Origin: Mytilus trossulus
Taxonomy: Eukaryota
Reading direction: 5' to 3'
Assembly: GCF_036588685.1 (NCBI RefSeq)
Contig: NC_086381.1
Span: forward strand, 44,268,001-44,332,000
Length of the DNA stretch: 64,000 nucleotides
In this document: in pieces, positions 12,001 through 57,753 of the stretch
Numbering within the stretch: the stretch's first letter is position 1
Layout of the letters: each line of letters opens with the position of its first letter
Notes under the pieces: generated by a model
The model's database searches: none
What the model saw: only the letters and a program-made list of their open reading frames with translations
What the model was told of the DNA's origin: nothing
Position numbers and translations under genes: made by a program

Positions 12001-12318
12001 TCAGAGAAGGTATTGAAAAAATCTGGACAGAAATATACGTATTGTATACGTTTGTGGGTTTTGGGGCATTTTTCGTCTTTTCGAAGTTGTGATCTGCAAA
12101 GTTTAAAATTAGATAGTTGCAAAAAGAGTTAAACAACGTATAAATCATGAAATGAGTCTTTATCGTGGTTTTTTTTAGAAAACAATTCATAATTTTGCAA
12201 ATCTGTGAATTTATCCGTTTATTAGTATACCTTTTTCATTAAATAATGTTTACATATAAATTTGCAAAGAAACAGTTTCATGTTAACCACATACTAAAAG
12301 TAAAACTTTAGACCTGGT
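1..12318. repeat. Tandem array of a ~2.68 kb unit (4.6 copies visible, continues off the left edge)
   Basis: The string cgcatatgtcttgtcc recurs at 1, 2679, 5358, 8032 and 10710 (periods 2678, 2679, 2674, 2678). Copies differ mainly in homopolymer lengths plus a few substitutions. Identity stops after ...tttagacctggt at ~12318. Confidence 0.97.
1929..2135. mobile_element. Fragment of an abundant interspersed repeat (aagaagatgtggtatgatt... family), present in every full array unit
   Basis: Same sequence family as 42845-43275 and 56881-57250, and in reverse orientation 44135-44315, 22178-22362, 19228-19408 and 12445-12523. Confidence 0.75.
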
Positions 12319-20879: not shown

Positions 20880-22177
20880 ATTGTTTTGCTAGACAAACGA
20901 TGAACGATCGATTGATAAAGTTTAACTAGCTTTGCACTTTTAAGATAATGTAAAAAAAAAATACTGAAGATTATAAATAAATATTAGATCAAGTCATACG
21001 TGATCATTTGTTTTCGTCTACGTCATTTGAACTCTTACTAATTATAGTTGTATGGGAGATATACCGTTGAACATGCAAGTTAGTGTCAAATATATAGTAT
21101 AAAATTTTATCAAACGTAGACCTATAACACTATAAGAAATACAAAGGAATAATAAGGAAATCAAATGTCTCTAATATAGTTTCTGTTTGTTGATTATTTG
21201 TACATGCCACAACTAAGAGGTGAATTTCCCTTGTTTCTGATTTTCAACGGTTTGTATTTTCTCACAGTATCACAATAAGAAGTAAACTACCTTGAATTTG
21301 AGTATTCAAAAATAAAACAAATGATCAGAAAAACAAACTTATATGTACATCAAATCAAAATCCTGTCGCATATATTTTTTTGGGGGAAAATAATATTAAT
21401 ATCAAGTTTGAGTTATTTAAGATTCGGTTTATACATGCACAATTTTCCATTGGATGACTTCTTAAGTTGAATCATTTTAAACATAATTTGATTTTGTTAA
21501 GGAATATTCCTACTGTTACACATCTTTTTAAAAATAAAATCAAACTTTGTGCAAAATGAATCTCTATGTATTATTACTTGATAAATTATTCTGATATACG
21601 CCAAAATATTGGTAAAGCTAATAATGTTCATATATTGATGTGAATTTTAGCAAACATTCATATGGATGCTTTTTCCGAATATGTACCTACTATGAAATAA
21701 ATTAAGGGGAAATAACCCTATCTCTTTCATTTATTTACTGATGCATTCTATAAAGAAATCATCATTTATTCTGTGTCTTCTCTCCAAACAACATAACACC
21801 AGATGTATATGATGATCAATTCATTTCCGAGTCAATGAATATTCCCGCTTTTTTTTCACATGTTAATATATGGAATCGCCTGTGGTCAAATTGTGTATTA
21901 CTTCATTGATGAGATCAATCAAGGTTTATTGACATATATTACACTGTTTACAATTCTTTCAAAACATACATAACGAAATACTTGTGAAATGACAAATGTT
22001 GTTGTTCTCAGGTGTCCATACTTAGCCGAAAAAAATCAGGAAAATAAATGATGATGATTCTTTAACGTAAATTTAATGTTGTTAATCACCTACTTAATCA
22101 AGTACTAATCGATCACTAATCGCTCGAATACGGATCTTGTTTTATAGTGCATAATATGAGATAAATAAACAGTAAAT

Positions 22178-22362
22178 TAGACCGTTGGTTTTCCCTTTTG
22201 AATGGTTTTACACTAGTAGTTTTGGGGGCCTTTACAGCTTGTTGTTCGGTGTGAGCCAAGGCTCCGTGTTGAAGGCCGTACATTGACAAGTAATGGTTTA
22301 CTTTTATGAATTGCTATTTGGATGGAGAGTTGTCTCATTGGCACTCACATCACATCTTCCTA
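22178..22362. mobile_element. Interspersed repeat fragment (SINE-like or non-autonomous retroelement tail)
   Basis: Similar to 19228-19408 and 12445-12523; reverse complement of 56881-57070. Confidence 0.75.
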
Positions 22363-22560
22363 TGTTGAAGTAAGAATTGCAACATAAATAAAAGATAAAT
22401 AAGTAGTCCAATGTTTAACAAATTTCTGATAAATAGTACCTATAATTTTCATTTATTTTGTTAATAACATGTGCACAATTTTGTATATGTATTGCCTCTG
22501 TCACAAAACGATCGTTCATGTTATAACTACTTTTTTGGTTGAATAACTTTTTTAGAAAAC

Positions 22561-24169
22561 TGTGACGTAGAAAATATTCGTTCAAAATAGAATAGAAGAA
22601 TATTTAATAAATGAAAGTATATTCAATAGATAGAACAAAGACTTGTTAAATTTACAATTAAATAAAGAGGTTCATATTTTAAGAGAAACATAATAAAATT
22701 GATTTAAAAAGTTTTAAACCAAGTTACAACGCAATGTTATGTAACAGGAAATTATAGAAAACATTATCAAAAAGATTGTGACATGTTAATCCCCCTGAAA
22801 TAAATTAAGCTTTAATAATTATGAAAAGGGGCACATTTTAGACAATAAATCATTATCAATAGGGATAGCGTCCCGCCGAAGGCAAAGCGATTATTTTATA
22901 AAAAAATAATCGTCTATTGTATAATAGGTTTTAGGGAGGAGTAACTCAAATTAATTTTAAATTGAGGAATAAATTATCTTGTGATTGGACAAACAAATTT
23001 AGGTTGATCTTTGAGTGACCACGTGGAAAAAAGGTTTTAAGGGATAAATTTTGATAATAAACTTCACTTGGTCACTTGATAGCAAGAATAAAGATATAGC
23101 CTGAATTTGTGTCCATTATATTTAAGGTATGTAAAGTATAAGTGTTAACAATTAATTAAGAATAATAATTTAACTCTTAATGGATTTATTTTGTTAAATC
23201 AAATTAAAGTAAAAGAACCTTTTCAGTTACGATAAGTATATTTATATAATTTGTAAAGTTTATAGGTTTGTTGAATATTAGGTAATTCAATCAAGAATTT
23301 AAGCATATAATAAGTTCCGTAAAGATTACATGTTTGCAGCTATTGGTTTTATTTTATAATATTAAAGGGACATAATTTGATATTGTTTAGAACGATACTC
23401 GTTTGAAGAAAACAATTTTAGAAATAATAAGAACCAAAGGAATATTTAAAATGATATTTATAGATAAGTTCAACTCTAAGATAGTCAGGAAACTGAACAA
23501 TAAGCAGTAAGTCTTGGGAAGGCGAAAATAATTAGGTTTGATCAACAAGAGAAAATGTTTATATCAACGGGATACTAGGACTGTAAAATAATGTTTATTA
23601 CTTAAGAATGCAAAGATATAAGTAAATATATATTGCTCGAAAGTCCTTAATTAATTATGTCTTTCAATTCGGATCATGCATTTTATAATATAAGTTATTT
23701 ATTTTTATAAGAAATAAAATATACTGCCAGTTCAATTTGAGCTTGAAATGTGAAGATTATATATGAGATTGAGATATACAATTTTACAATGTTCATTGTT
23801 AAAGGTTTATAATAAAGTATTTAGTTTGACAAATAGTCAGGGACTATCCAAATTGAGTGTTAACTCTAATTTCATATATATATTTAAGAATGTAAAGATG
23901 AGAGTTAGTTCCCTTGTTAAAAGATGATTTTGGAATATGCAGAATTTATATTTAAGGTTCTTTATATGCATGTATGTTTCTTTTATTTTTGATATCGTTA
24001 ATTCATAATGTATGTACAATTGTAATTAAATGTTCATGATGTTCACTTGGTCACTTGATAGCAAGAATAAAGATATAGCCTGAATTTGTGTCCATTATAT
24101 TTAAGGTCCAGCGGCAAAAAGTTATCAAGTATAGCACGATACAAAACACCCCCAAGTATCGACACAACA
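22561..24169 (+). repeat. 5' LTR (1609 bp)
   Basis: Starts tgtgacgtag, ends gacacaaca; repeated at a constant offset of 11184. Reverse CCAAT (gattgg ~22983), CACGTG (~23020) and GATAAA (~23043) precede Inr-like TCACTT at ~23064. Confidence 0.97.
23063..23128 (+). repeat. 66 bp LTR-internal direct repeat, copy 1 (copy 2 at 24042-24107; 3' LTR copies at 34247-34312 and 35226-35291)
   Basis: ttcacttggtcacttgatagcaagaataaagatatagcctgaatttgtgtccattatatttaaggt is identical in all four places and contains AATAAA. Copy 1 continues as the splice donor AAG|GTATGT. Confidence 0.95.
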
Positions 24170-24173
24170 GATT

Positions 24174-24182
24174 TGGTGGAGG
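24174..24182 (+). promoter_or_regulatory. Primer-binding site (TGGTGGAG; possibly tRNA-Ala)
   Basis: Lies 4 nt after the LTR end; complementary to a tRNA 3' end ...CUCCACCA. The tRNA identity is tentative because the match is short. Confidence 0.7.
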
Positions 24183-24214
24183 AGAGAGGAAAGAACGGTA
24201 CCTAAAATTTAGAA

Positions 24215-25483
24215 ATGCCAAGCACCCCCCTAAACAGAAACTTGCGGTCGACCAACAAAACCACAGAAGGAGACCAGCAAGCAACAGAAAGAATCATAAC
24301 AACTGAACCAACTCAACGTAGAACAGAAAGTGTTGGAACAACAGCTGGTACAAGTGGAATTTCAACAACTAGTACAAGTGGAATTTCAACAACTGGTACA
24401 ACTGGAACTACAACAACTAATAATAGTGACAACACAACAACTGGTACAACTCAAGTTACTACAGTGGAAATACATCCAGAAAGTGACACACAAGGAATAG
24501 TACAACATACAACCATGCAACAACAGGACCAAGCACAACAAAATCCACAGGTACAACCTTTTATATTTAATGCAACAGCACTCCTTCAACCGTCAATATA
24601 TGACGGATCTTCAAAACCTTCATCATGGATTTCCCAATTTTCATCATGGACTAAACTACAAAACCTAACAGACAAAAACGCCATAAATGCGTTAACATTC
24701 TATCTAACTGGTTCAGCAAAAATTTGGTTTCAAAGTTTGCCAGATTCAGCAAAAACAAATCTAGCATCAATTATAAAACTTCTAGAAGTAAGATTTACAA
24801 CATCAGATGATGAAGATATTCTAACAACACAAGCAACAAATGAAAGTGTACATGAATTTTTAGACCGACTTACTCTTAAAGCTACAAGTCAACGCATCCC
24901 AGAATGCTTAGTTCTAAAAATAGCAAGAAAAGGGTTTAAACAGGCCCTACAACAATCCATTATACAGCAAAATCCGAAAAACATGGCCGAATTAAGAGAA
25001 GCCGCAGTCATTGCAGAAAAATGCTTAGCATCAAACATCAGTCAACAAATTTCAATCAATGCCATTTCACAAAATGACTTTAAATCATTAAGTGATACAA
25101 TTAAATTATTATCTGACAAGGTAGAAAATTTAAATATTGAAAATCAAGAACTGAAGGCCAACTTTGGCAAGGCCAATCAAAATTATCAAAACAAGCCAAA
25201 TTGGCAAAATAATAGAGCGCCTGGCAGAAACTTTAATGGTCAAAGAAATTTTCAAAAGAATTCAACTTATCAACAAGCTAGACCAGCTTACAATTCAAAT
25301 GCCAGCTGGAACTCATATAATAAAACCAACACATGCACAGCATGTGGCAATATGTCATGTTCAGGCAAAAGGGAAACTTGCGATGCAAGTGATAAAAAAT
25401 GTTATAAATGTGAAAGAATTGGACATTACTCAAGGCAATGTCATAGTATCAGAAACATAAGAGGCGAAATTATTAGGCACTAG
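24215..25483 (+). CDS. gag: Gag (422 aa): Thr-rich N-terminus, capsid-like region, coiled coil, C-terminal zinc knuckle
   Basis: PSIYDG...W...F, LTGSAKIWFQSL and QATNESVHEFLDRL are retrotransposon-gag-like motifs; CYKCERIGHYSRQC is a CCHC knuckle; the ORF directly follows the PBS. Confidence 0.93.
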   Translation: MPSTPLNRNLRSTNKTTEGDQQATERIITTEPTQRRTESVGTTAGTSGISTTSTSGISTTGTTGTTTTNNSDNTTTGTTQVTTVEIHPESDTQGIVQHTTMQQQDQAQQNPQVQPFIFNATALLQPSIYDGSSKPSSWISQFSSWTKLQNLTDKNAINALTFYLTGSAKIWFQSLPDSAKTNLASIIKLLEVRFTTSDDEDILTTQATNESVHEFLDRLTLKATSQRIPECLVLKIARKGFKQALQQSIIQQNPKNMAELREAAVIAEKCLASNISQQISINAISQNDFKSLSDTIKLLSDKVENLNIENQELKANFGKANQNYQNKPNWQNNRAPGRNFNGQRNFQKNSTYQQARPAYNSNASWNSYNKTNTCTACGNMSCSGKRETCDASDKKCYKCERIGHYSRQCHSIRNIRGEIIRH

Positions 25484-28400
25484 GGACGCGAGCCTATTTT
25501 TAGGCGGCTGTCTAAAAGTGGGCATAGTGGCAAGTCTCCAAGAGTTAACTTAATTACCCCTATGGATAAAAATAAAATTTCAATAGAAGTTTATGATGTT
25601 AAAACAATAGGACTTGTTGATACAGGTGCCTCTATCTCATGTGTCTCAGAAAACTTGATAAATAAGTTAAGTAATAGTAAAATAGAACTTGAGAGAACAA
25701 ATTTTATGAATATTTATGGAGTAGGAGGTGAAGAACATAAAGTATTGGGTAAAGTTACGCTCCCACTTAAATTTCAAGGACTTGTCATTAAACATAGATT
25801 TCATGTAGTTCAAGATCTACAATATCCTGTAATTTTAGGTGATGAATTTTTATTACAAAATAAATGTAATATCCATTATCCCTCCCGTACATTGTATATA
25901 CATGAAGGGTCACTACAAGTTTCCCTCCTTAGTACAAAATCTGGAAAAGCAAGAACGGCTAAAAGATTTAAAGTACCTGCTAATAGTATGGCAAATGTTT
26001 CAGTAAAAATTTCAGATATTTTTTTGAATGATGTAGTGTTATTAGAACCACTACCTTTACTTAACAAATATGAACTGATAGGAGCCTCTTGTTTAGTAAA
26101 AGTTTCTAAATCGGGTTCAAAATTTCAAATTATTAACCCTACTGATATGGCAGTCACAATACCTAAATTTAGCATAATAGCAAATGTGATGCCAGTGGTT
26201 GAAGATAGTATTCAAAGCTTGTCTGATGATAAAAGTGAAAAACAAAAAAACGAATGTGTAGCAAATATAAATAGTTCAAAAGTGAAAAAGGAAAAAAGTA
26301 AAAGATCTAAAAGTAAAATAGATTTTGACCTTGACTCATCAGATATGACAAATGATCAGAAACAAAAATTTTTGAAATTTTTAAATGTAAATAGAGATGT
26401 GTTTGCAGCTGACTTGTCTGAACTGGGGAAATGTAATATAGGGGAACATAAAATTGAAACTACTGACAACATTCCTATTAGAGTACCCCCATACAGAGCA
26501 ACGCCCAAGGTTAAAGCTGAAATAGAAAAGCAAATCGACAAAATGTTAGATAACAAAATTATTGAACCGTCCACTTCCCCGTACAACAGCCCAGTTGTGC
26601 TTTGTCAGAAAAAGGATAAGTCCTTTAGATTTTGTATAGACTATCGCAAGCTAAATGCTAAGACAACTGTAGAATGCTGGCCTTTAGCAAGCTTAAATGA
26701 CGTTTTCGACGCTATTGGGGAAGCAAAAGCCACTATATTTACTAGTCTCGATCTTTGTCAGGGATATTGGCAAGTCCCACTACACAAAGACTCACGGGAA
26801 AAAGCTGCTTTTGTAACTCATTCAGGAATATATGAATGGACAAGAATGCCATTTGGTCTGAGAAACAGCAGTATTACTTTTTCAAGAGTTATAAGTCAAG
26901 TACTACAAGGTTTAAACTGGAAAAATGTATTGGCTTACATAGATGATATTTTGGTATTTAGTAAAAATTTAGAAGATCACATGCATCATTTAGATCAAGT
27001 TTTCGACCGACTTAAAAAGGCTAACCTCAAACTAAAACCAAGCAAATGTCACTTTGGAGTTAAACAAGTAAACTACTTAGGTCATATTTTGACAAAAGAA
27101 GGTGTTACAACAGATCCTGAAAAGATACATATTGTCAAAAATCACCCAGCTCCTAAAAACCAACATGAGGTACGACAATTTCTAGGCTTATGTAACTATT
27201 ACAGAAAATTTGTGGAAGGCTATGCAAAAATAACAATTCCATTAAATTCCCTACTACAAAAGGAAAGTGAATTCAAATGGACAGACAAATGCCAAGAATC
27301 ATTTGAATTATTAAAATCAAAGTTAATATCTGCACCAATTTTGGCATTCCCAGACATGTCAAAACCTTTTATTCTAACCACAGATGCATCAGGTCAAGCG
27401 ATAGGGTATATACTTGGTCAAAAAGATGACCAAAATAGGGAAAGAGTAATATCTTTTGGTGGTCGGGCCCTGAAAAAGGAAGAAAAGAAATGGACTGTTA
27501 GTGAAAAAGAATGTTTGGCTGTGTTAGAAGGAATTAAACACAATAGGGTCTATTTATCCCATGACAAATTCACTGTTTTCACTGACCACAAAGCTTTATT
27601 ATGGTTAAATAAGGTTAAAGATACAAATGCAAAATTAGGAAGATGGGCACTAGAGTTGCAGAATTTTACTTTTGATATAATCTTCAAAGAAGGTAAAAAT
27701 AACAAAAATGCAGATGCAATCTCAAGAATACCCTACCCACCCACCCCTGAAAAGGTAGATAGTAATCAAGTCGAGGTACTAGGCTTAGAAACAAAGGAAC
27801 CAGAAGATGTAGGTATGTTAACAGAAATTACATTTGAATATGAAATTCAAAAACCATGTATTGCTGCCATAAATGATGAAAATGACAATGAGGTAAGATT
27901 AAATGATATGTCGGAAATAGCAAAGCTACAAAGACAATGTACAGAATTGTCAGACTTAGTAACCTTTCTAGAAAGTGGTATATTACCTCAAAATGATAAA
28001 AAGGCAAAAAGTATAATATACGAAAAAGACCTGTACAGGTTCGGCACAGAAGGTGAGTTAATACATCAATACCTACCTAGAACGAAAGGAGTACCTAGAT
28101 CAGAAGTAATGATTGAACAAATTGTACTTCCAAAATGCATGAGACAAGAAGCTTTAGAAGCATACCATGATTGTAGAGCTGGTGGAGGTCATAAAGGTTT
28201 TCGTAGAACATATGCAGCTTTACAACAAAAATACTACTGGTCTGGTATGTATCAAAATGTGTACAACTATGTCATTTCTTGTGATGCATGTCAGAGAGCA
28301 AAAAGACCAACAAATAAACGACCAGCACCATTGATGCCTCTGCCAGTCGCAGAAACATTTGAAAGATGGCACATGGATATCTTATCAGGGTTTCCAACAA

Positions 28401-29608
28401 GTAAAGATAAGTATCAACATGTATTACTAGTGGTTGACAGTTTCTCACGATGGGCTGAAGCATTTCCGCTGAGAACACAAGAAGCTAAGGAAATTGCTCA
28501 TATTTTGTACAAAGAGGTATTTACTAGATTTGGAAGTCCTAAAACTTTGGTGTCTGATAGAGGTCAAAATTTCTGCTCAAAGCTAATACAAGCTTTATGT
28601 GAACTTTTCCATGTTACACGTCACACAACAAGTTCATATCACCCACAATCAAATACAACATGTGAAAGGATGAATAGTACAATAGCTCAGACCTTGCGTA
28701 CATATTGTACTAAAGACCAAATAAATTGGCCAGAGCTAATTCCAAGTGTTATGATGGCTTTACGGATGTCACCAAACACAGAGTCAACAGGATACTCCCC
28801 ATTTCATATGGTTTTTGGTAAGGAAATGAACATACCATTTGATATCTCAGTTAAACCGAAAGAAAACATAGGTAGGTCAGTGAAAGAACATATTAATGAT
28901 CTTATAGAACACTTAAAAGCAGTCCAAACAATTGCCAAGAATAATGTAAGTAAAAGTCAGGAGAAAACTAAGACATACTATGACAAAAAGGCAGCAAAAC
29001 CAAAATTTCAAGTAGGTGACAGAGTTTTGATGCAATGCATGAAAGTACCTAAAGGGTCAGCGCCTAAACTCCATGAAAAATGGGTAGGTCCTTTTTATAT
29101 TAACCATGCCAATGAAAACACTTATAAGTTAAGAAGGTTAAGTGATCATAAATTGATAAAGTCAAGAATCCATGCAAATAGAATAAAAATATATGTGGAT
29201 CCTAGGGACCATAGGCAACCCCAAGTAGATAGACAAGTAGACGAACAACAGACTGACAATACACATGACGGACAACAAAATAATGAAGAAAATATTCAAG
29301 AAAATGATAACAATGATGTTCAAGAAAATGATAATGATAATGTTCAAGAAAATGATAATCAGAATGAGAATGATGAATTAAATGATGATAATCAATTTGA
29401 AGCTGAAAAGCTAGTAGCAAAGAAAAGACAAAATGGGCAAAATTTTTACAGGGTCAAATGGGTTGGATATAAAAAAACAACCTGGATACCTGAAAAAGAC
29501 ATTGGTGAAGGTTTGTTGGTTGACTTTCACAATAAACATACCAAAGATGGAAAAATAAGAAAAAGAAAACATATGACATGTTTTCAAAATCAAAAACATA
29601 AAGATTAA
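25484..29608 (+). CDS. pol: Pol: protease, reverse transcriptase, RNase H, integrase, C-terminal chromodomain (first ATG 25562; frame open from the gag stop)
   Basis: LVDTGAS (PR), RMPFGL and YIDD (RT), TTDASG and FTDHKAL (RH), H..H..CDAC, WHMD / VSDRG / CERMN (IN), WVGPF, then FEAEKLV...YRVKWVGY...TWIPEKDI (chromo). Confidence 0.98.
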   Translation, partial: GREPIFRRLSKSGHSGKSPRVNLITPMDKNKISIEVYDVKTIGLVDTGASISCVSENLINKLSNSKIELERTNFMNIYGVGGEEHKVLGKVTLPLKFQGLVIKHRFHVVQDLQYPVILGDEFLLQNKCNIHYPSRTLYIHEGSLQVSLLSTKSGKARTAKRFKVPANSMANVSVKISDIFLNDVVLLEPLPLLNKYELIGASCLVKVSKSGSKFQIINPTDMAVTIPKFSIIANVMPVVEDSIQSLSDDKSEKQKNECVANINSSKVKKEKSKRSKSKIDFDLDSSDMTNDQKQKFLKFLNVNRDVFAADLSELGKCNIGEHKIETTDNIPIRVPPYRATPKVKAEIEKQIDKMLDNKIIEPSTSPYNSPVVLCQKKDKSFRFCIDYRKLNAKTTVECWPLASLNDVFDAIGEAKATIFTSLDLCQGYWQVPLHKDSREKAAFVTHSGIYEWTRMPFGLRNSSITFSRVISQVLQGLNWKNVLAYIDDILVFSKNLEDHMHHLDQVFDRLKKANLKLKPSKCHFGVKQVNYLGHILTKEGVTTDPEKIHIVKNHPAPKNQHEVRQFLGLCNYYRKFVEGYAKITIPLNSLLQKESEFKWTDKCQESFELLKSKLISAPILAFPDMSKPFILTTDASGQAIGYILGQKDDQNRERVISFGGRALKKEEKKWTVSEKECLAVLEGIKHNRVYLSHDKFTVFTDHKALLWLNKVKDTNAKLGRWALELQNFTFDIIFKEGKNNKNADAISRIPYPPTPEKVDSNQVEVLGLETKEPEDVGMLTEITFEYEIQKPCIAAINDENDNEVRLNDMSEIAKLQRQCTELSDLVTFLESGILPQNDKKAKSIIYEKDLYRFGTEGELIHQYLPRTKGVPRSEVMIEQIVLPKCMRQEALEAYHDCRAGGGHKGFRRTYAALQQKYYWSGMYQNVYNYVISCDACQRAKRPTNKRPAPLMPLPVAETFERWHMDILSGFPTSKDKYQHVLLVVDSFSRWAEAFPLRTQEAKEIAHILYKEVFTRFGSPKTLVSDRGQNFCSKLIQALCELFHVTRHTTSSYHPQSNTTCERMNSTIAQTLRTYCTKDQINWPELIPSVMMALRMSPNTESTGYSPFHMVFGKEMNIPFDISVKPKENIGRSVKEHINDLIEHLKAVQTIAKNNVSKSQEKTKTYYDKKAAKPKFQVGDRVLMQCMKVPKGSAPKLHEKWVGPFYINHANENTYKLRRLSDHKLIKSRIHANRIKIYVDPRDHRQPQVDRQVDEQQTDNTHDGQQNNEENIQENDNNDVQENDNDNVQENDNQNENDELNDDNQFEAEKLVAKKRQNGQNFYRVKWVGYKKTTWIPEKDIGEGLLVDFHNKHTKDGKIRKRKHMTCFQNQKHKD

Positions 29609-30042
29609 ATGAGAAAAATATAGAATAAAAATCAAATATTAAGCTTTAGCTATAAAAATTAGGAGGAAATAAAAATTAATCCTATATAGTCAAGCGAAAT
29701 GAAATTTGATAAGGAGAAATGGAAAAACTATTAAAGGAAAATAAGAAAATCTTACCCCAAAACTATGCGCATAGTAAAATATTGAGGGAAATAATGTGAA
29801 ATAATAATAAAAAAAAAAAGTATGATTTGTAGAGTGACCAAATACATGATAAATTTCATTACGGCAAACAAAACTAAAATTATCAAAACTAAAACAATAT
29901 TTGAACTTTCTTTGTTAGAATCATGAGAATAAATCAATTTAGGTAAAACTAAAAAGATAAATTAGTGCTTATACATAAGAAAAACGTACGATTTCTAATG
30001 TGTATATCTTGGATCTAACAGACAAAAATTCTCTCGTTGTAG

Positions 30043-32445
30043 ATAAAAAGACAGGTGTCTGCTTTGATCAGCCCAATTGCCATTTTGTTTTGGATATTCA
30101 TCATGTTAACAGCTTTCATTCAGTTAAGTGAAGCAAAGTCTACTCATAAACAAATTCTTAAACTTAATTATGGCATTATATTTGAAAAACAAGGTAGAAT
30201 TCATTTTGGAAAAGATGTCTGGAAACATACCTTTCAAATTAAAATGCCAATAAAGAGAGGAAGTGTAGAAATTCAGCAATGTAAACAAAAGCAAATATGC
30301 AAAAGATACAATGAAATGATTGTACAACTAGATTTGTTGCAAAAGCAAAATGTGGTTAATTTAAATGAAACCGTAAATGTGATAAAAGAATTAATACCAA
30401 CCAACAAACCAACACTAGTCAAAGGTAGAAGAAAATCTAAAAGAGCAATCTTATCTTTCGTGGGGCAATTATCAAAAACTCTATTCAATACAGCAACTAT
30501 GGATGATGTAAACCTATTAGCAAGGCACATAAATGCCCTAACTACTAGAACATTAAAGTTAACAAATACAATGGCTCAACATGATCAGCATGAATCTTCA
30601 TATATGGCTTCTGTGGATAAAAGAATTTCAAACCTAGTTACGCAAATATCAGACAATCATAATGAAATTAATATGATGCAAAAATCTGTATTAGACAATG
30701 TCAGAGAAGCAGAAAATTTATTTCTGCATCTTCAAGCAAAGATAATAGAATCATTTTCTTTATCTTCAAAAATTAATCAGCAACTGGAACAATTGAAATT
30801 GGGAATTTTTGATTTAGTACAGGGAAAATTGTCTCCCTTACTAATAAAACCTTCAACTATAACCAGCACACTAAACAGGATACAACAGGTATTAAACACA
30901 AAATACCCAGGATTTTATATTTCGCAAACTAGTCAAAATTTTTATTATGATACCAAAAATTTTGTATTTTCAAAACATAAATCTGATATATTTGTGATGT
31001 TAAACATACCATTAGCATATAAAATGTCAAAATTTGACTTGTATAAAGTAACGTCTTTGCCATTTCCACATAATTCAACAACTCATGCTACACAATTGTT
31101 AAATACCCCTAAATATATAGCTATTACAAAAGATAAACAATATTATATAACATTGTCAGACCAAGAAGTAGAAAAATGTACCAAATATAATGATAATTTT
31201 CATTGTCAGTTTACAAAATCATTTTCAACTAGTATAAACTCATGTTTAATATCAATATATAATAACCAAAAAGAGAAGGTAAACCAATTGTGTGACTTCA
31301 GATTTTTACATGATGTAATAAAACCAAAAATTGTTGCATTAACACAATCATCTGTAGTAATATATAAAACCCCACAGTTAAATATGGATTGTAATGGAAA
31401 ACAAATAATAAAACAAGGTTGTGATTTTTGTATAATTCAAATCCCATGCAGATGTTCTATTTTAACTAAAAACTTATATATTCCACCATCATTTACAAAT
31501 TGTAAAAGATCAAATAATATAACTACTATATATCCAATAAATCTTGCTTTATTACAACAATTTTTTGATGCTAAACAATTAAAAGATATTCAACCTAATT
31601 CTACATTTAGTACATTACCAAATATTGCAATTCCAAACTTTAAAATGTATAATCATTCTTTTTCAACATTTTTGTCAAATGATAGAAGAAATCATTTAAG
31701 CCTTACAAAGATGGCTGAAGCTACAAAGAAAGAAGGCATGGTTTTCCATAATTTGGCAGAGCCACTGCTAGAAGGAATCATAAATGTTAAAGATAGTTGG
31801 CCTGATTTAAATGGTATTTTAGGCATGATAGGAACAGTACTAGCATCCATATCATTTATTTTTGCTATATGGGCATTCTTTAAAATAAAAAACCTAACAA
31901 CAGCAATAATAATACTTCAAGGATCTTGCCATGTAAAAGCTATGACAGCACCATCATTTATTTATAAAAACATTCAAACAACAACATCAAACCCAATTTC
32001 ATCAAATTTTTTTAATGAACTAAAATTTAATCATATTTTGGTGGCCATAATTGGTATTTTGATTGTCATTGTGGTTTTTCTTGTATTATACAAAAAGAAA
32101 AAAAGTTCTCAACACACATTTATATCATTAGAGATAACCACAGGTTCAAACTGCTTAACTCTTCCCCTTTGCAAGCTACCACTATGTCCATCATATTGGA
32201 CTTTTTCAATGCCACCAGAAGTTGAAAGTCTCAGTGTTTCTGGAATTTTTAGACCTAGTTTACATATTAATTGGGAAGATTTTATCATAACAAATACTTT
32301 GACACAAAAATCTATAGTAGGTCCTAAAAGTATTAAAATTTCTTTCTGGGAAGCTTTACGCTTAAAACAAATTTTAAAACAACCATTTTTTGTTTATATT
32401 TTATTAAAACACAATAATATGTACAAAATCATAAACGAGCCTTGA
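30043..32445 (+). CDS. env: Env-like class I fusion glycoprotein (baculovirus-F/errantivirus type), probably expressed by splicing
   Basis: N-terminal hydrophobic signal, furin site RRKSKR (30427-30444) followed by the fusion-peptide-like AILSFVGQLSKTLFNTATMDD, heptad region, Cys-rich region and two C-terminal hydrophobic segments. The frame opens right after ctaac...ttctctcgttgtag at 30042. Confidence 0.9.
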   Translation: MKRQVSALISPIAILFWIFIMLTAFIQLSEAKSTHKQILKLNYGIIFEKQGRIHFGKDVWKHTFQIKMPIKRGSVEIQQCKQKQICKRYNEMIVQLDLLQKQNVVNLNETVNVIKELIPTNKPTLVKGRRKSKRAILSFVGQLSKTLFNTATMDDVNLLARHINALTTRTLKLTNTMAQHDQHESSYMASVDKRISNLVTQISDNHNEINMMQKSVLDNVREAENLFLHLQAKIIESFSLSSKINQQLEQLKLGIFDLVQGKLSPLLIKPSTITSTLNRIQQVLNTKYPGFYISQTSQNFYYDTKNFVFSKHKSDIFVMLNIPLAYKMSKFDLYKVTSLPFPHNSTTHATQLLNTPKYIAITKDKQYYITLSDQEVEKCTKYNDNFHCQFTKSFSTSINSCLISIYNNQKEKVNQLCDFRFLHDVIKPKIVALTQSSVVIYKTPQLNMDCNGKQIIKQGCDFCIIQIPCRCSILTKNLYIPPSFTNCKRSNNITTIYPINLALLQQFFDAKQLKDIQPNSTFSTLPNIAIPNFKMYNHSFSTFLSNDRRNHLSLTKMAEATKKEGMVFHNLAEPLLEGIINVKDSWPDLNGILGMIGTVLASISFIFAIWAFFKIKNLTTAIIILQGSCHVKAMTAPSFIYKNIQTTTSNPISSNFFNELKFNHILVAIIGILIVIVVFLVLYKKKKSSQHTFISLEITTGSNCLTLPLCKLPLCPSYWTFSMPPEVESLSVSGIFRPSLHINWEDFIITNTLTQKSIVGPKSIKISFWEALRLKQILKQPFFVYILLKHNNMYKIINEP

Positions 32446-32932
32446 GTTTTGTTGACAATTGCCTGAACATGAATATTTTCTATCTTGTCATCATATAAAT
32501 AATATATAGTAAGGTTAGGATTGTGAAAAATGGCACCGGATTATAAATGACATTAACATTAGTGGAAATGAGAAAAACGGAGGAATTCGAAGAAATGAAA
32601 TATATGTGAATATTGAAGAATACTAAAGCAACTACAAGATGTCATGTGTTATACGTTCAACATAGAAGGATAGGATTCAATAACATCATTATTTCGTGTG
32701 GAGAAACCAACTGTGTAGATATAATTCATGGATATTGTTACAAGAAATAACCGAATATAATGTATTTTTCCGTATATTGCGCGACCTTGTTACCTTTATA
32801 CAAAAATTATCTCGTATTCTGTTTTTACTTATTAACAAAAATGTAAATGTGTTTTATTTGTGAAAATGTATGATCATATATATGTTACATTATGTTTGAA
32901 TATTAATCATATGTTGTATTATTTTGTTATAG

Positions 32933-33595
32933 ATATTTAACCATAGTTACTTCTTTTCATCCAGTAGAGGACGTGGAATCAAACAACATATTAAATGCAA
33001 AGATTTTTTTGTTAAACCAGGTGCCAAACTTTTTGATCTTTGTGAAATAGCATTTCAAAAATTGAAAAATATAAAAGAAAAGAAATTAGTTTACATTATG
33101 GCAGGAATTCCTGACATGTGTGTTAAAGACAAAGACTACAAGAAAACATATGAAGAAGTATATTTTGACAAAAAAAGTGACAAAGTCATTGAAATTAAAC
33201 ATGCCTTAGAATTTATTACAGAAAGGTTAAGTAAAATAAATTGCTATATCATTTATGTTCCAATTACAACAATGAATATTGAAAAATGGAACTACCATAG
33301 ACTTTATATAAATAAAACAAAATTCCTTCTTCATACAGAAAACTATATGAAAATGCAAGACAACTTAAATTGGGCTGTTCATCAGATAAATATATATATT
33401 ATAAGCCACAATAAAACATCTGAATTGGCAACTCCATTAATACAAGCATATGTACACAAATCTACTGGATCAAAGAAAAGATATGCATATGCAAAACTGG
33501 TGGATGGTGTTCATCCATCAGAACAATTGATTCAATCATGGGTAAAACAAATAAAAAAAACCATGAGTGAAAATGAATCCAGGTTACAAATGTAG
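32933..33595 (+). CDS. ORF4: SGNH/GDSL hydrolase-fold protein (~220 aa) inside the retroelement
   Basis: The frame is open from 32933, upstream of the track's 33062 start: IFNHSYFFSSSRGRG (block I), FVKPGAKL (II), VYIMAGIPD (III), LVDGVHPS (V). It begins directly after the acceptor-like attttgttatag. Confidence 0.8.
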   Translation: MFNHSYFFSSSRGRGIKQHIKCKDFFVKPGAKLFDLCEIAFQKLKNIKEKKLVYIMAGIPDMCVKDKDYKKTYEEVYFDKKSDKVIEIKHALEFITERLSKINCYIIYVPITTMNIEKWNYHRLYINKTKFLLHTENYMKMQDNLNWAVHQINIYIISHNKTSELATPLIQAYVHKSTGSKKRYAYAKLVDGVHPSEQLIQSWVKQIKKTMSENESRLQM

Positions 33596-33744
33596 AATAG
33601 ATGAAAATTGATGTGCATGTATATATGTTATTGGTGTAATTTTTTTTATATATAGAAACAGTAACAATGAGTAATTTTATGTTATTTTATTTAGCATACA
33701 GTTAACTTTGAGGGACCAAAGTTTTTTTTGTCCGACAGGGTATT

Positions 33745-35353
33745 TGTGACGTAGAAAATATTCGTTCAAAATAGAATAGAAGAATATTTAATAAATGAAA
33801 GTATATTCAATAGATAGAACAAAGACTTGTTAAATTTACAATTAAATAAAGAGGTTCATATTTTAAGAGAAACATAATAAAATTGATTTAAAAAGTTTTA
33901 AACCAAGTTACAACGCAATGTTATGTAACAGGAAATTATAGAAAACATTATCAAAAAGATTGTGACATGTTAATCCCCCTGAAATAAATTAAGCTTTAAT
34001 AATTATGAAAAGGGGCACATTTTAGACAATAAATCATTATCAATAGGGATAGCGTCCCGCCGAAGGCAAAGCGATTATTTTATAAAAAAATAATCGTCTA
34101 TTGTATAATAGGTTTTAGGGAGGAGTAACTCAAATTAATTTTAAATTGAGGAATAAATTATCTTGTGATTGGACAAACAAATTTAGGTTGATCTTTGAGT
34201 GACCACGTGGAAAAAAGGTTTTAAGGGATAAATTTTGATAATAAACTTCACTTGGTCACTTGATAGCAAGAATAAAGATATAGCCTGAATTTGTGTCCAT
34301 TATATTTAAGGTATGTAAAGTATAAGTGTTAACAATTAATTAAGAATAATAATTTAACTCTTAATGGATTTATTTTGTTAAATCAAATTAAAGTAAAAGA
34401 ACCTTTTCAGTTACGATAAGTATATTTATATAATTTGTAAAGTTTATAGGTTTGTTGAATATTAGGTAATTCAATCAAGAATTTAAGCATATAATAAGTT
34501 CCGTAAAGATTACATGTTTGCAGCTATTGGTTTTATTTTATAATATTAAAGGGACATAATTTGATATTGTTTAGAACGATACTCGTTTGAAGAAAACAAT
34601 TTTAGAAATAATAAGAACCAAAGGAATATTTAAAATGATATTTATAGATAAGTTCAACTCTAAGATAGTCAGGAAACTGAACAATAAGCAGTAAGTCTTG
34701 GGAAGGCGAAAATAATTAGGTTTGATCAACAAGAGAAAATGTTTATATCAACGGGATACTAGGACTGTAAAATAATGTTTATTACTTAAGAATGCAAAGA
34801 TATAAGTAAATATATATTGCTCGAAAGTCCTTAATTAATTATGTCTTTCAATTCGGATCATGCATTTTATAATATAAGTTATTTATTTTTATAAGAAATA
34901 AAATATACTGCCAGTTCAATTTGAGCTTGAAATGTGAAGATTATATATGAGATTGAGATATACAATTTTACAATGTTCATTGTTAAAGGTTTATAATAAA
35001 GTATTTAGTTTGACAAATAGTCAGGGACTATCCAAATTGAGTGTTAACTCTAATTTCATATATATATTTAAGAATGTAAAGATGAGAGTTAGTTCCCTTG
35101 TTAAAAGATGATTTTGGAATATGCAGAATTTATATTTAAGGTTCTTTATATGCATGTATGTTTCTTTTATTTTTGATATCGTTAATTCATAATGTATGTA
35201 CAATTGTAATTAAATGTTCATGATGTTCACTTGGTCACTTGATAGCAAGAATAAAGATATAGCCTGAATTTGTGTCCATTATATTTAAGGTCCAGCGGCA
35301 AAAAGTTATCAAGTATAGCACGATACAAAACACCCCCAAGTATCGACACAACA
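33745..35353 (+). repeat. 3' LTR (1609 bp)
   Basis: Same length as the 5' LTR and no differences seen by eye; followed by TSD AAAC. Confidence 0.97.
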
Positions 35354-35564
35354 AAACTGTAAAAAAAAAAAATGTATATCGGATCTGGCCGTTCAATGAT
35401 AAAACATTTAGCCTGATATTTTCATTTTCATGATGAGTGTAGCATTCTTTTTTAGTGAAGGGAGAAAAAAGAGATAAAAAAGAAATACAGTATAGAGAAA
35501 AATGTACTTAAAATGTCAAGAATACATATTTAAGACCCTGTAAAATGGTGTTTGGAAAATACTT

Positions 35565-35935
35565 CTTTATGAAAGCCTACATACATGGAAGATATAGGAA
35601 AAGCCGGGCAAAACAAATGTGGTATACCATATATTTCAGAAAAATATACATTAAATTTCTACATACATTACATTATTTAAAAAAGATTTTTTTAATAGAA
35701 TGTCGTTTCACGTCATTAAATAGATTTTTTAATTGATACAGCAATGTTGTTTCAAAAATTATACTTTTATACATTTTATGAATGAGGCCAAGGAAGATAG
35801 TAAAAGCCGCGTAAAACGAATGTGGTATACCATATATTTTGATTAAAACAAATATACATCTTTTCTAATGCGTTACATTATTTAAAAAAAAATAGAATTT
35901 CGTTTCACATTAATATGAAAAAGATTTTTTAATTT
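35565..35935. repeat. Imperfect local ~210 bp tandem duplication
   Basis: ggaagata...aaaagccg...atgtggtataccatatattt...tacattatttaaaaa...tcgtttcac occurs at ~35590-35735 and ~35790-35935. Confidence 0.75.
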
Positions 35936-36193
35936 ATCATTTTCTTTTATTAAAGACAATGTCACACACAGTATCAAATAAGTTGGATTCAATCAAAAGT
36001 TATAATGATAACCATCATGTTCTGATGAATGAATCTAGTAGGTGGTACTAAGAACATCGCAATTTCCCATAAAACCTGCGTCAAGAAGTCTAGTGACTAA
36101 ACTGTCAAAATGACATCTATCCTGTTACTAACAAGGTAAACAAATGACAGTCATCATTCGGCCATTATACAACGTGACACCTTCATTATATCA

Positions 36194-36341: not shown

Positions 36342-38099
36342 ATGAAGACAGGAACGTTTACATTCGTATTTGGAGTTTTATTTCTATATTGCGCAAATGG
36401 TAAGTTAACATTTAAAGTTAATTCGTATCATGTTAGTAATAAATTAATTATTCTTTAAAAATAATTTGAATAAGTAATTTAAGGTACCAATGAAAATGAC
36501 ATTTATATATTTGTTGCGCTTTTCTGGATATGTCTCAGTCATCAGTAACGCTCATGCTCCAAAATAGACAAGCAAGTCCATTATGATATATATATTCACT
36601 CTTAAATACAGATGCACTGTCATGTTTTGTAATTGTGAAAAATGCAACATCTTGAAAAGAGAACGAACTGCTGTACTTGTTAACTTGTTTTGTTGACCAA
36701 TTGACCCGTTAATGTTGATCTCTATATCTCTCTTTATTCACCTGAAATATAAAAATTTATATCAAAAACTTTTATTAAATTTATTTTTCATTTTTCAATT
36801 TTAGGTCATAAATATCACAGCTACCGCAGATATGGGAGGCACCACGTGAAACATCGACCTATTAAACAGGAAGGGTCCTTACTTCCGGTAAATCCTCCTG
36901 TAAACATATGTCCACCTCTTGTTTGTCCATTGATTGATATTCCAAACGAATGTCGAAAGGAAATATATACTAATGTGTATGGAGTACTTTGCAGAGGATG
37001 TGACAAAAATATATGTGTAAATAATAAAATAGTTCCAGACATTACAAAAATTCAACCGGACAATGGACCAAGTAGAGGTGACATTCCAAAAGTTCCAAAG
37101 TTTGTCAATCAAATGACCGGTAAACTTACCGGAAGTTGGCTCGATGCAAATCTGAATCCAAAGCCTGTATATATACCAAATAATCAATTTCAAATCAATA
37201 ACAACATTCCATTGCCAAACAATGTTCCGGTCTGGCAAAATAGTTTGAACACGCAGTGGACAAATAATGGGCCCCTGAATCCACAATGGCAAAGTAATGT
37301 TCCAGCAAATATCCAATGGCAAGATAATGTACCAATCAACTCTCAATGGCAAAATACAATACCAATGAACAACCAGTGGCAGAACAATGGAGCTGGTAAC
37401 AGTTTATGGCAAAATAACGTAGCTGGCAACAGTCTTTTGCAAAATAATGGAGCTGGCAACAGTCTATTGCAAAATAATATAGCTGGCAACGGTCTATTGC
37501 AAAATAATGTAGCTGGCAACGGTCAATGGCAAAACAGTGGAGCAGTAAATTCACAATGGCAAAATATTTTGCCAAATAATCAATTGCAGAACACACTGCC
37601 GATCGATCAAAACAACATGCAATTTCCTGTTAATAATCAATGGCAAAGTGCACCTGTGTTTAGACAGCAACCCAACACACTTACTGTACTTGGAACATTA
37701 GCACAAGGTGGACCGTCTCAAAACACACCATTTGTACGTGGATCTTTCCAATCACCAAACCAAGCTATCCCACAATTCAATCAGAACCCGTCAGGTAGTT
37801 CTTTGCCTGTTTTTAGAAACAATCAACAGATAGGGACACCAATATCTGGTCTACCTATTCAACTTACCGGAAAAGACGTGAAGTCGGTCCCGATTCGAAA
37901 AGAAAGTGATCAAAATGGGAAAATAGTCGAATCAGCTCCTGTTCTCATAAAAACTAGCGAAAATCTTGGATTTACCAATCCGCTATATAATGAATTACCG
38001 TTCGTTCAAACTATCGACAGTATAAACAGTAAAGTATATGATGCGAATGCACCCGAAGCTTTAATCACCAAAGCTGTAAACTCAGTTGGTGGCGTGTAA
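36342..38099 (+). CDS. Secreted Asn/Gln/Pro/Trp-rich repeat protein, 2 exons, 450 aa (possible shell-matrix or byssal-type structural protein)
   Basis: Exon 1 (36342-36399) encodes the signal peptide MKTGTFTFVFGVLFLYCANG and ends G|GTAAGT. Exon 2 (36805-38099) follows tttttcaattttag, phase 1, in frame with the 417 aa ORF. It has a His/Arg/Tyr-rich start, a 6-Cys module and decapeptide repeats ending QWQN/LLQN. Confidence 0.88.
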
Positions 38100-57250: not shown

Positions 57251-57753
57251 AAACTAAAGAATAACAATTGTAATGGCTTATCTCAATCAAGAGACATATT
57301 GACACAAGTGTACATACAGTGAACGAGTAAATTTGATGCTTAGTCTTTGGTGTTCTATATTTAGTGTTCTATTTTGTGTTTTATGTATTTTTGTTTGTCG
57401 TTTGGATTTTTCTTTTTGAGCTATGACGTTGTCTTTTGATTTTTAACATATGAATTTGAATGTTCCTCTGGGTTCATTTGCCCCTCTTTCGAAATATTTT
57501 GGAGTGGTTTTAAGTTTTAGCGGTGAAAATTCGCATTTTGTCATGCGATAAATGCTGAAACAGGACATGGCCTCTTATAGGGAAAAAACCCCACACACCA
57601 TAAAATGATAATAAGTTATATTGAAATGTTAATACATAACAGCATTTTTCATGATTTTCTTCAAAATGAGTATATGGGTTGTAATTAAAAGATGAACATC
57701 AGTTATCATATAAGACACAACAGTCGGTTTATTTTCTGATTTGTTTATTTCAG

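Follow-up and report, generated by a model that had tools for sequence, protein, structure and literature searches.

The 64-kb stretch of Mytilus mussel DNA analyzed here (the window) probably contains a replication-competent-looking Ty3/gypsy “ancient errantivirus” that inserted very recently between two host genes, a reading that includes the mechanism proposed below. The core of the element, a Ty3/gypsy errantivirus with an F-type env, a chromodomain, and a gag-stop-pol arrangement, is of an already known kind. Chary & Hayashi (eLife 2026, PMC13524379) reported intact bivalve Ty3/gypsy errantiviruses with an F-type env, including five in M. californianus, along with a chromodomain clade whose members come from Cnidaria, Mollusca, and Annelida; the contrast with three-gene insect errantiviruses drawn in a preliminary description of this DNA is therefore out of date. 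That description also found the architecture unfamiliar. Gag-stop-pol is known from Tj1 and GDSL ORFs are known from rotifer LTR elements, and what stands of this claim is the combination of env with a fourth, SGNH ORF, of which no description was found in the literature on bivalve errantiviruses. The text and seven supplements of PMC13524379 do not mention an esterase, SGNH, GDSL, or readthrough, and its text does not mention splicing; the available portions of PMC6238403 and PMC8220671 contain nothing on env-bearing or esterase-bearing elements. A post-UAG hairpin at MLV spacing, an env spliced to a Gag leader, and an env polyprotein were likewise not found in print for bivalve errantiviruses.

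Terminal features, gag, and pol

The element is present as a single copy in the window, which contains 0 N. Its terminal features are:

22557..22560, no strand: 5' target-site duplication (TSD) AAAC (TSD comparison)
22561..24169, + strand: 5' LTR, 1,609 bp, TG...CA (LTR alignment)
24174..24188, + strand: candidate primer-binding site (PBS), whose first 8 nt fit a tRNA ending ...CUCCACCA
33707..33744, + strand: candidate polypurine tract (PPT) before the 3' LTR, weakly purine-rich (similar motif 3' of env in L001)
33745..35353, + strand: 3' LTR, identical to the 5' LTR (LTR alignment)
35354..35357, no strand: 3' TSD AAAC (TSD comparison)

The two 1,609-bp LTRs align with 0 mismatches, and the 9,575-bp interior between them holds four stop-free frames on the + strand (gag, pol, env, and ORF4), with intact gag, pol, and env in errantivirus order. 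Among duplication lengths of 3 to 7 bp, only 4 bp (AAAC) matches. The 5' LTR contains a 66-bp internal duplication (23063-23128 = 24042-24107). The Ty3/gypsy hallmarks present are the TG...CA LTRs, a short TSD, a PBS (8 nt), and a PPT (weak). The preliminary description was correct in reporting equal-length LTRs without differences, a clean TSD, and a bivalve host, and the recent insertion it proposed agrees with the identical LTRs, the TSD, and the intact motifs; its term “potentially active” is a reasonable inference. LTR identity can also be obtained through assembly polishing or gene conversion. Insertion within a host gene was considered and set aside: the last recognizable exon of an SDR-like gene ends ~1.7 kb upstream, so that the site looks intergenic, although it may lie in a UTR intron. 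An Rfam search of 22000-36000 returned 0 matches, and the 64-kb window has 0 tRNA genes.

The primer tRNA is presumably tRNA-Ala. Tf1-like self-priming was rejected, as the complement in the LTR is just 7 nt. Ala tRNA ends are listed in a table of PMC13524379 (eLife), and the purine run of the PBS agrees with that of Mcal_errantivirus_3 in 11 of 12 nt and lies a similar distance from the LTR. Judged by host, PBS, chromodomain, and lengths, the family of the mussel element is probably Mcal_errantivirus_3 (RT clade K, IN clade Y). Close relatives of the element's proteins are found among M. edulis and M. californianus proteins. The Gag core is 98.7% identical to M. edulis P0206 (236 aa) and 95.2% identical to M. 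californianus P0205 (310 aa); the contig of P0205 is the same size as that carrying Mcal_3 and Mcal_5.

The gag-pol region contains:

24215-25483, + strand: gag, 422 aa, with an S/T-rich leader, capsid region, zinc knuckle, and UAG stop (ORF and domain search)
25481..25523, + strand: candidate readthrough cassette, with UAG-G, an 8-nt spacer, and a 14-bp stem-loop at 25492-25523 (folding statistics)
25484-29608, + strand: pol, 1,374 codons in the same frame as gag, with protease, RT, RNase H, integrase, acidic linker, and chromodomain (~29396-29530)

The Gag N-terminus has no obvious membrane-targeting signal. As the preliminary description stated, gag ends in TAG and pol continues in the same frame. 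A nonsense mutation of one copy is ruled out because the stop position is conserved, being the same in P0205 (80% identical) and P0208 (55%), while in L002 (pol 43% identical) gag-TAG-G-pol likewise occupies a single frame. The 50 nt 3' of the UAG fold at -21.8 kcal/mol (z -3.9), a stability equaled in 2 of 1000 shuffles, and this fold ranks best among 1,905 windows of the internal region; the L002 hairpin does not reach significance (z -0.35). Gag would be translated from full-length RNA transcribed from the 5' LTR, and a minority of ribosomes, aided by the hairpin 8 nt downstream, would pass the UAG and produce Gag-Pol. The hairpin, the spliced Gag leader, and the probable second membrane protein in env (see below) were overlooked in the preliminary description.

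By domain search, Pol has the order PR-RT-RH-IN-chromo, and it retains the DTG, YIDD, RNase H D/E/D/D, HHCC, and DDE motifs. The best solved relative of Pol is Ty3-G (446 bits, versus 131 for a foamy-type chain and 114 for a gammaretroviral-type chain), a similarity ranking rather than a tree that agrees with the Gypsy lineage assigned earlier; the RT does not ally with Lokiretroviruses or Retroviridae, Ty3 being much closer. The chromodomain also named earlier is matched C-terminal to the integrase (PF00385, E 4e-5), at 23.9 bits just below the 25.1 gathering cut-off. RNase H and the integrase Zn domain are separated by ~150 aa; ancient errantiviruses have RNase H plus a “mini” domain in the bridge region (PMC13524379).

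The env frame

Features involved in the expression and processing of env are:

24548..24556, + strand: predicted splice donor CAG/GTACAA, after gag codon 112, phase 0, in frame with the env and ORF4 acceptors
30010..30042, + strand: predicted env splice acceptor, a pyrimidine tract plus TAG (P0011 enters env exactly at 30043)
30043-32445, + strand: whole env frame, 800 codons stop to stop (ORF)
30043..31941, + strand: F-type class I fusion part of env, with signal sequence (residues 3-31), furin-type site ending at R134, fusion peptide, TM1 (590-614), and an internal signal-peptide-like segment (615-633) (sequence and fold searches)
31942..32445, + strand: predicted second membrane protein, env residues 634-800, 167 aa (cleavage predicted)

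Both env and ORF4 start directly 3' of a splice-acceptor-like AG site. The M. californianus RefSeq model P0011 exits Gag at the residue equivalent to codon 112 and joins env at 30043; this gene model is without env residues 58-120 and is no clean copy. Gag sequence lies upstream of Env in 5 of 46 env homologues, with P0011 exactly at the predicted junction, and similar pyrimidine tracts are found 5' of env in L001 and L002. The leader of P0003 (LOC134721030) is Gag-like by motif likeness only, with no match in BLAST. Given the junction in the gene model of the sister species, Env is predicted to be made by splicing onto a 112-residue Gag leader. The spliced RNA would join gag codons 1-112 to env, and the product would enter the ER.

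The first part of Env has the F-type character, signal peptide, furin site, fusion peptide, and TM of an errantivirus env. Its earlier designation as F-type is upheld by a match to the PDB “fusion protein” 9w4d (E 1.8e-8), by Foldseek matches of the predicted model (mean pLDDT 69) to RSV, hMPV, and hPIV3 F (best E 8e-11), and by Pfam Baculo_F matches in 12 of 32 aligned env members. The env of the window itself has no Baculo_F match, a profile search of the PDB with env found no F protein, and in VIA-align the F matches of the model reach just Z 7-8.8, below helical-bundle matches. A furin-like motif occurs in 29 of the 32 env sequences (the three misses include N-terminally short rows). Cleavage by signal peptidase and furin would convert the precursor into an F2/F1 fusion protein.

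The published analysis of env extends just as far as the TM (PMC13524379). Beyond that point, Env appears to be a polyprotein: cleavage at an internal signal-peptidase site would probably free another membrane protein, one with a cytoplasmic beta-domain. Residues 634-800 comprise a ~30-aa S/T/P-rich outer part with a conserved PSF motif, TM2 (663-688), a polybasic patch, and a C-terminal cytoplasmic domain of ~110 aa that in the predicted model is beta-rich (pLDDT ~73-88), with conserved C704 and C715. A search of the ESM Atlas with the tail (686-800) gave no usable match, and whole-model fold searches of env barely test this domain.

Basic residues follow TM1 in 32 of 32 env sequences and TM2 in 30 of 32; therefore, both TMs are biased toward N-out/C-in, which requires an in-to-out segment between them. 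A small-x-small motif at the end of the intervening segment is conserved in 31 of 32 sequences. A hydrophobic stretch and the -3/-1 rule coincide at residue 633 in 30 of 32, more than at any other column scanned (runner-up 19 of 32), by our own heuristic, set after viewing the alignment of these related sequences. Without a second cut, Env would remain an F protein that crosses the membrane several times and ends in a long tail. In the AlphaFold model, residues 590-628 form a single unbroken helix, as that arrangement would have it, but the arrangement is rather unlikely given the charge bias at both TMs, which demands the in-to-out segment, and the conserved small-x-small end.

In the polyprotein reading, the second signal-peptidase cut after the anchor would yield a small membrane protein of type I; its cytoplasmic beta-domain most likely helps to couple capsids to the membrane at budding. 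That this protein is instead a FAST/sORF2-like cell-cell fusion helper, and not a matrix-like adaptor, is a distinctly unlikely alternative: conditional on cleavage at 633, the ~30-aa outer part, single TM, polybasic patch, and tail of <150 aa fit the size and topology criteria of a published screen (10.1101/2025.03.14.642691), but the N-myristoylation motif required by that screen is absent, there is no MG start, and the segment lies inside the env frame with no separate ORF. In addition, the tail is modeled as a folded beta-domain (pLDDT ~73-88), and the element already encodes F.

ORF4

The last frame of the element is:

32933..33595, + strand: ORF4, SGNH/GDSL hydrolase, 220 codons stop to stop (Ser11, Gly30, Gly58-x-x-Asp61, Asp191-x-x-His194)

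The preliminary description called this frame an accessory hydrolase, in keeping with its SGNH fold and conserved Ser-Asp-His columns. The ORF4 model (pLDDT 97.9) has SGNH fold matches of up to Z 17.5 (rmsd 2.3, 164 aligned), and the Ser of block I, Gly of block II, and Asp-x-x-His of block V are present. Among 124 family rows, the catalytic alignment columns hold Ser11 in 118, Asp191 in 123, and His194 in 123; block III has Asp in place of the canonical Asn in 109, as G-x-x-D with Pro or Cys at the Asn position. The ORF4 sequence alone has no match in the PDB and its profile a weak one, phage records gave no match, and Pfam GDSL is detected in 2 of 11 family members. The family comprises 1,639 clusters at E<=0.001, and in a quick tree of 51 rows (a subset) the support for a mytilid-like group is only 89, too low for a conclusion.

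The frame opens directly 3' of an acceptor-like TTATAG, an unremarkable site (12 of 18 pyrimidines, a score shared by many of 272 sites). Its first AUG (33098) is downstream of the putative catalytic Ser (32963), with none upstream of Ser11, so the open frame is no proof of independent translation; of the four uninterrupted ORFs first described, all are stop-free, but ORF4 is not thereby shown to be translated by itself. Since 92 of the 124 family rows have their own Met just upstream, ORF4 in this copy may be silent. If expressed here, it would most likely be made by splicing from the gag donor.

ORF4 is absent from L001 and L002 and is therefore dispensable for the clade. It is kept beside env in a lineage 42-47% identical (P0058, P0003), and in P0058 an integrase end is followed by a chromodomain, env, and then an ORF4 relative (42-56% identity). 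P0002 and P0012, for each of which the longest contig listed is 10,326 nt, probably represent a third such lineage. It is conceivable, if rather doubtful, that the element is an ordinary three-gene bivalve errantivirus and ORF4 a passenger SGNH gene from a wide mobile pool, gained by one mytilid sub-lineage and untranslated here. The absence of an AUG before the catalytic Ser, the size of the family, and the absence from L001 and L002 fit this account, as do 5 of the 10 closest relatives (P0001, P0004, P0005, P0006, and rows such as P0076), which start at an internal Met or without block I. The listed bivalve elements have a median internal length of 8.4 kb, too short for ORF4 (28 bivalve rows with LTR coordinates in PMC13524379, measured LTR to LTR, to the exclusion of gastropods and of entries lacking LTRs). 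A passenger gene is harder to reconcile with 220 open codons in 26% GC DNA that begin exactly at an in-frame acceptor, with the conserved triad, and with persistence beside env in the P0058/P0003 lineage and probably the third.

The preferred reading is that ORF4 is a lineage-restricted accessory gene for a soluble cytoplasmic SGNH esterase, as its fold and triad in silico suggest; the enzyme most likely acts on lipids or acyl groups in particle assembly or trafficking. Some RNA viruses have haemagglutinin-esterases, and by analogy ORF4 could be an extracellular receptor-destroying or glycan O-acetylesterase beside F. This is very improbable: its gene comes after that of the fusion protein, and the best fold matches include sialate O-acetylesterases and peptidoglycan O-acetyltransferase domains (Z 16.1-16.3), but these tie with generic GDSL lipases at 10-18% identity and so give no substrate indication. 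Furthermore, ORF4 has no signal peptide or hydrophobic segment, and no evidence was found for splicing that would join the env signal sequence to ORF4.

Proposed mechanism and known systems

In Drosophila errantiviruses, the passage of enveloped particles from somatic cells to the germline is established. Enveloped particles of the mussel element would take the same path, and the chromodomain integrase would guide insertion. More broadly, and tentatively, mytilid errantiviruses may be complex, still infectious enveloped viruses with at least five products from three RNAs: Gag, readthrough Gag-Pol, F plus a previously unrecognized membrane-anchored protein (matrix-like or a fusion helper, and common to mollusc errantiviruses) cut from an env polyprotein, and a spliced accessory esterase. 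If true, this would place an alphavirus-like envelope polyprotein in a Ty3/gypsy element, with an enzyme accessory gene alongside env. Catalogues of non-insect errantiviruses have so far treated them as three-ORF elements, with env examined just to the membrane anchor. An intact copy with identical LTRs leads to specific predictions (splice junctions, a readthrough signal, a second env cleavage, and an esterase with named catalytic residues) that make the budding and spread of such elements in molluscs testable. The env-tail architecture is common to nearly all homologues examined and would thus apply to the whole mollusc clade, beyond a single locus; ORF4 would place a large SGNH family, most of it unnamed, in a genomic context for the first time.

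The bivalve “ancient errantiviruses” (PMC13524379) share gag-pol-env(F) and LTRs in Mytilidae, and listed members of their clade carry a chromodomain, as here. Mvir_errantivirus_1 has a similar layout, with an LTR of 1,595 bp and an interior of 9.5 kb (versus 1,609 bp and 9,575 bp). Tj1 of Schizosaccharomyces japonicus (PMC4600332) also has gag and pol in one frame split by a stop, but is without env. Readthrough in MLV uses a UAG, an 8-nt spacer, and then a structure (PMC4178896); the spacer is common to both, whereas the MLV structure is a pseudoknot and that of the mussel element a simple 14-bp hairpin only. The Lokiretroviruses (PMC7947760) have a paramyxovirus-like F env with an RXKR site, and some carry an extra gene (smc). 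They are elements of vertebrates that form the sister group of retroviruses and carry a dual RNase H; the Pol of the mussel element is much closer to that of Ty3. The sORF2/FAST-like proteins of the MDG1 group (10.1101/2025.03.14.642691) resemble the predicted second membrane protein as small type-I membrane proteins with a short ectodomain and polybasic patch, but are separate, mostly myristoylated ORFs of env-less insect elements, whereas the mussel segment is the C-terminal part of env with a folded beta-domain. The ORF1p esterase of ZfL2-1 (PMC3905857, PDB 4c1b) is likewise a retroelement-borne SGNH enzyme, active and phospholipid-binding, and serves as a functional model for ORF4; ZfL2-1 is a non-LTR element with the esterase as part of ORF1p, and its fold match to ORF4 is weak (rank 50, E 6.7e-4). 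In the bdelloid rotifer Vesta LTR elements (PMC5408684), an SGNH esterase (GDSL ORF3) with intact catalytic residues lies downstream of pol, as in the mussel element. The Vesta esterase stands in place of env, whereas that of the mussel element follows an intact env.

Integrity and setting of the element

The window contains the following features, given with coordinates and strand:

about 12898-20880, +: host gene exons, with fragments near 12898, 17055, 18218 and 20793
22561-35353, +: the whole element, delimited by its LTR boundaries
36753-38099, +: ORF of 448 codons with many Q, N, P and W residues and 10-aa repeats
46399-47610 (+) and 53286-54349 (-): inverted pair of decayed RT-like copies, about 77% identical over 1.1 kb
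57714-64000, +: open frame of >2,000 codons running past the window end, S/T-rich and then repetitive

The analysis confirms the element as intact and young. Its LTRs, both 1,609 bp long with ends TG...CA, align with 0 mismatches, the 4-bp duplication AAAC lies on either side, and no stop interrupts the four frames, which are gag (422 aa), pol (1,374 codons), env (800) and ORF4 (220). Equal-length LTRs with no noticed differences, a clean TSD and four uninterrupted ORFs had been claimed in the preliminary description, as had a recent insertion, which agrees with the upper bound of 0.19% (95% confidence) on LTR divergence that follows from 0 differences over 1,609 bp. Such identity could also arise from assembly polishing or gene conversion. 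The interior measures 9,575 bp, and the element is present once in the 64-kb window. An exact 66-bp duplication in each LTR (23063-23128 = 24042-24107, likewise in the 3' LTR) includes an AATAAA and may be relevant to polyadenylation or to the R region.

The element lies about 1.7 kb past the last recognisable exon of the host gene, which from its motifs we take to be a short-chain dehydrogenase/reductase. The Q/N-rich ORF, for which no Pfam match was found, begins 1.4 kb beyond the element and is possibly an exon of a secreted or shell-matrix protein. The inverted RT-like pair is presumably Penelope-like, judging by motifs, and a 60-nt (20-aa) repeat, present in about 78 copies, follows the S/T-rich part of the last open frame. 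Across positions 1-12318 a 2.68-kb unit is repeated in tandem about 4.6 times (identity 99.3-99.5%), through either recent duplication or an artefact of assembly.

Gag, Pol and Env

By every tested feature, in an assignment based on features and not on a tree, the element is a Ty3/gypsy F-env errantivirus. The Pol domain order is PR-RT-RH-IN-chromo, with catalytic motifs present, and in comparison with PDB chains Pol is much nearer Ty3 than any retrovirus, consistent with the Gypsy lineage and chromodomain integrase first proposed. The pol frame is that of gag and begins directly after the gag TAG. Damage is ruled out as the origin of this stop, a conserved feature, because it is kept at the equal position in the M. 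californianus protein P0205 and the 55%-identical homologue P0208, and in the distant element L002 (gag-TAG-G-pol, single frame). Beyond the UAG and an 8-nt spacer comes a 14-bp hairpin. Among 1,905 windows of 50 nt across the interior, the one that holds it folds most stably (z -3.9; 2 of 1,000 shuffles equally stable), with no significant stability in the wider 101-nt window (z -1.5). L002 likewise has a stem 8 nt past its stop, but this is equal to shuffles (z -0.35), so the strong hairpin may be a lineage-specific trait. Of the readthrough claimed earlier, the in-frame stop is confirmed; translation through the UAG into pol is a prediction. MLV likewise spaces its downstream structure 8 nt from the UAG, that structure being a pseudoknot (PMC4178896) instead of a hairpin, and the gypsy element Tj1 is a precedent for gag-stop-pol readthrough (PMC4600332).

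The env product is F-type, as originally suggested. Its sequence matches PDB 9w4d, a "fusion protein" (E 1.8e-8), 29 of 32 rows have a furin-like motif ahead of the fusion peptide, and Baculo_F is matched in 12 of the 32 aligned members, the window's own copy not being among the 12. The Foldseek list for the predicted model (mean pLDDT 69) contains F proteins from pneumoviruses and paramyxoviruses throughout (best E 8e-11; TM, by query length, 0.22-0.26). Against the assignment, an env profile search of the PDB found no F chain, and VIA-align puts F chains at Z 7-8.8, amid helical bundles. The env frame opens directly 3' of a pyrimidine tract and TAG. In P0011, a RefSeq gene model of M. californianus without env residues 58-120, a Gag leader is fused to env at exactly the same residue, and its exit from Gag matches CAG|GTACAA after codon 112 in the window. 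Gag sequence lies upstream of Env in 5/46 env homologues (gene models). Four of these five (P0016, P0026, P0030 and P0053; scallop and abalone models) continue in Gag considerably further, to near the first Cys pair, which suggests that a spliced capsid-Env fusion may be made in some lineages.

Past the ectodomain, env has two hydrophobic segments and then a conserved 110-residue beta-rich domain (30/32 rows; pLDDT about 73-88 in the predicted model). Residues are acidic before and basic after the first segment in 32/32 rows and the second in 30/32, so both should be oriented N-out/C-in. Between the segments lies a signal-peptide-like layout (basic patch, short hydrophobic run, polar spacer, small-x-small). 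In a heuristic devised after viewing the alignment, the -3/-1 rule is satisfied at residue 633 in 31/32 rows, and, taken alone, in a handful of other columns with conserved Cys/Gly (757 scanned); with a hydrophobic-core condition added, residue 633 ranks top (30/32; runner-up column 19/32). Signal peptidase would thereby release a 167-aa type-I membrane protein. A matrix-like adaptor role is favoured for this product because the Gag N-terminus is a low-complexity, S/T-rich leader without an N-terminal Gly; the rival is a FAST/sORF2-like role (10.1101/2025.03.14.642691). A literature search found no description of signal-peptidase cleavage in errantivirus env, and the polyprotein is a probable departure from the described layout.

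The SGNH hydrolase ORF4

The accessory hydrolase noticed at the outset is well founded. The predicted ORF4 model (pLDDT 97.9) has structural matches among SGNH hydrolases (Z 17.5, rmsd 2.3, 164 aligned), and Ser11, Gly30, Gly58, Asp191 and His194 are kept in 117 to 123 of 124 rows of an alignment that took 114 of the 150 matches listed, short and fused rows omitted. Block III reads G-x-x-D in these rows, and no hydrophobic segment was found in ORF4. The family comprises 1,639 clusters at E<=0.001, with look-alikes in Atlas from Annelida and Mollusca. P0057, a homologue of 2,135 aa, has six ORF4-like repeats in which the catalytic DxxH is seemingly missing; ahead of them is a presumably RRM-like N-terminus, and the protein may represent domestication of the fold in the manner of Oskar.

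The homologue P0058 joins an integrase end, chromodomain, env and ORF4 relative in one protein, in that order, and P0002 and P0012, both with a longest contig of 10,326 nt, appear to link env and ORF4. ORF4 is absent from both distant elements examined as DNA (L001 and L002). The main rival to its expression, that it is silent in this copy, draws on the lack of an AUG ahead of Ser11 in the window, yet the reading frame begins at an acceptor-like site whose phase fits the gag donor. Because of this site, and because the M. trossulus model P0003 carries a 45-aa leader resembling the Gag N-terminus (by motif only), expression through splicing is the best guess and somewhat the likelier reading. 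By analogy, ORF4 is proposed to be a lipid or acyl-esterase that would act in assembly or trafficking; the ZfL2-1 esterase is active and binds phospholipid (PMC3905857).

Relatives and described systems

The Gag core shares 98.7% identity with a protein from M. edulis and 95.2% with P0205, and env shares 95% with M. californianus LOC127714723; the host is accordingly a Mytilus, probably from the edulis group, in keeping with the bivalve origin first suggested. L001 and L002 are mollusc-type errantivirus contigs within bacterial (Sedimenticola) MAG records, probably as host contamination; L002 is circularly permuted, and L001 pol is split across two frames near 2294-2334.

The core architecture is already published in bivalves: intact F-env errantiviruses are recorded in many of them (M. 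californianus has five), and a chromodomain errantivirus clade spans Cnidaria, Mollusca and Annelida (PMC13524379). In the same catalogue, Mcal_errantivirus_3 (7 copies) has a PBS purine run in common with the window element and a carrier contig equal in size to that of P0205, and Mvir_1 has similar LTR and interior lengths. By the catalogue's coordinates, the median interior among 28 bivalve rows is 8.4 kb, and four reach at least 9.5 kb (Mvir_1, Mvir_2, Mcal_3 and Dpol_2); judging by length, an ORF4 may be hidden there.

The architecture called unrecognised in the preliminary description is consequently familiar in its core, whereas the fourth, enzyme-like ORF is new relative to the described layout and, like the probable env polyprotein, apparently undescribed. 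The accessible portions of the PMC13524379 text and 7 supplements yielded no mention of esterase, SGNH, GDSL or readthrough, and the literature search found no element with env plus an SGNH ORF; a repeat-library entry for the family may well exist, since Repbase, Dfam and GyDB, like subscription journals and metagenome/viral contig collections, lay outside its scope. The extra features of the element are conserved and directly testable. An F-like env, at times accompanied by an additional smc gene, is also known from lokiretroviruses (PMC7947760); in rotifer Vesta elements a GDSL ORF3 replaces env (PMC5408684), whereas here ORF4 is present in addition to env.
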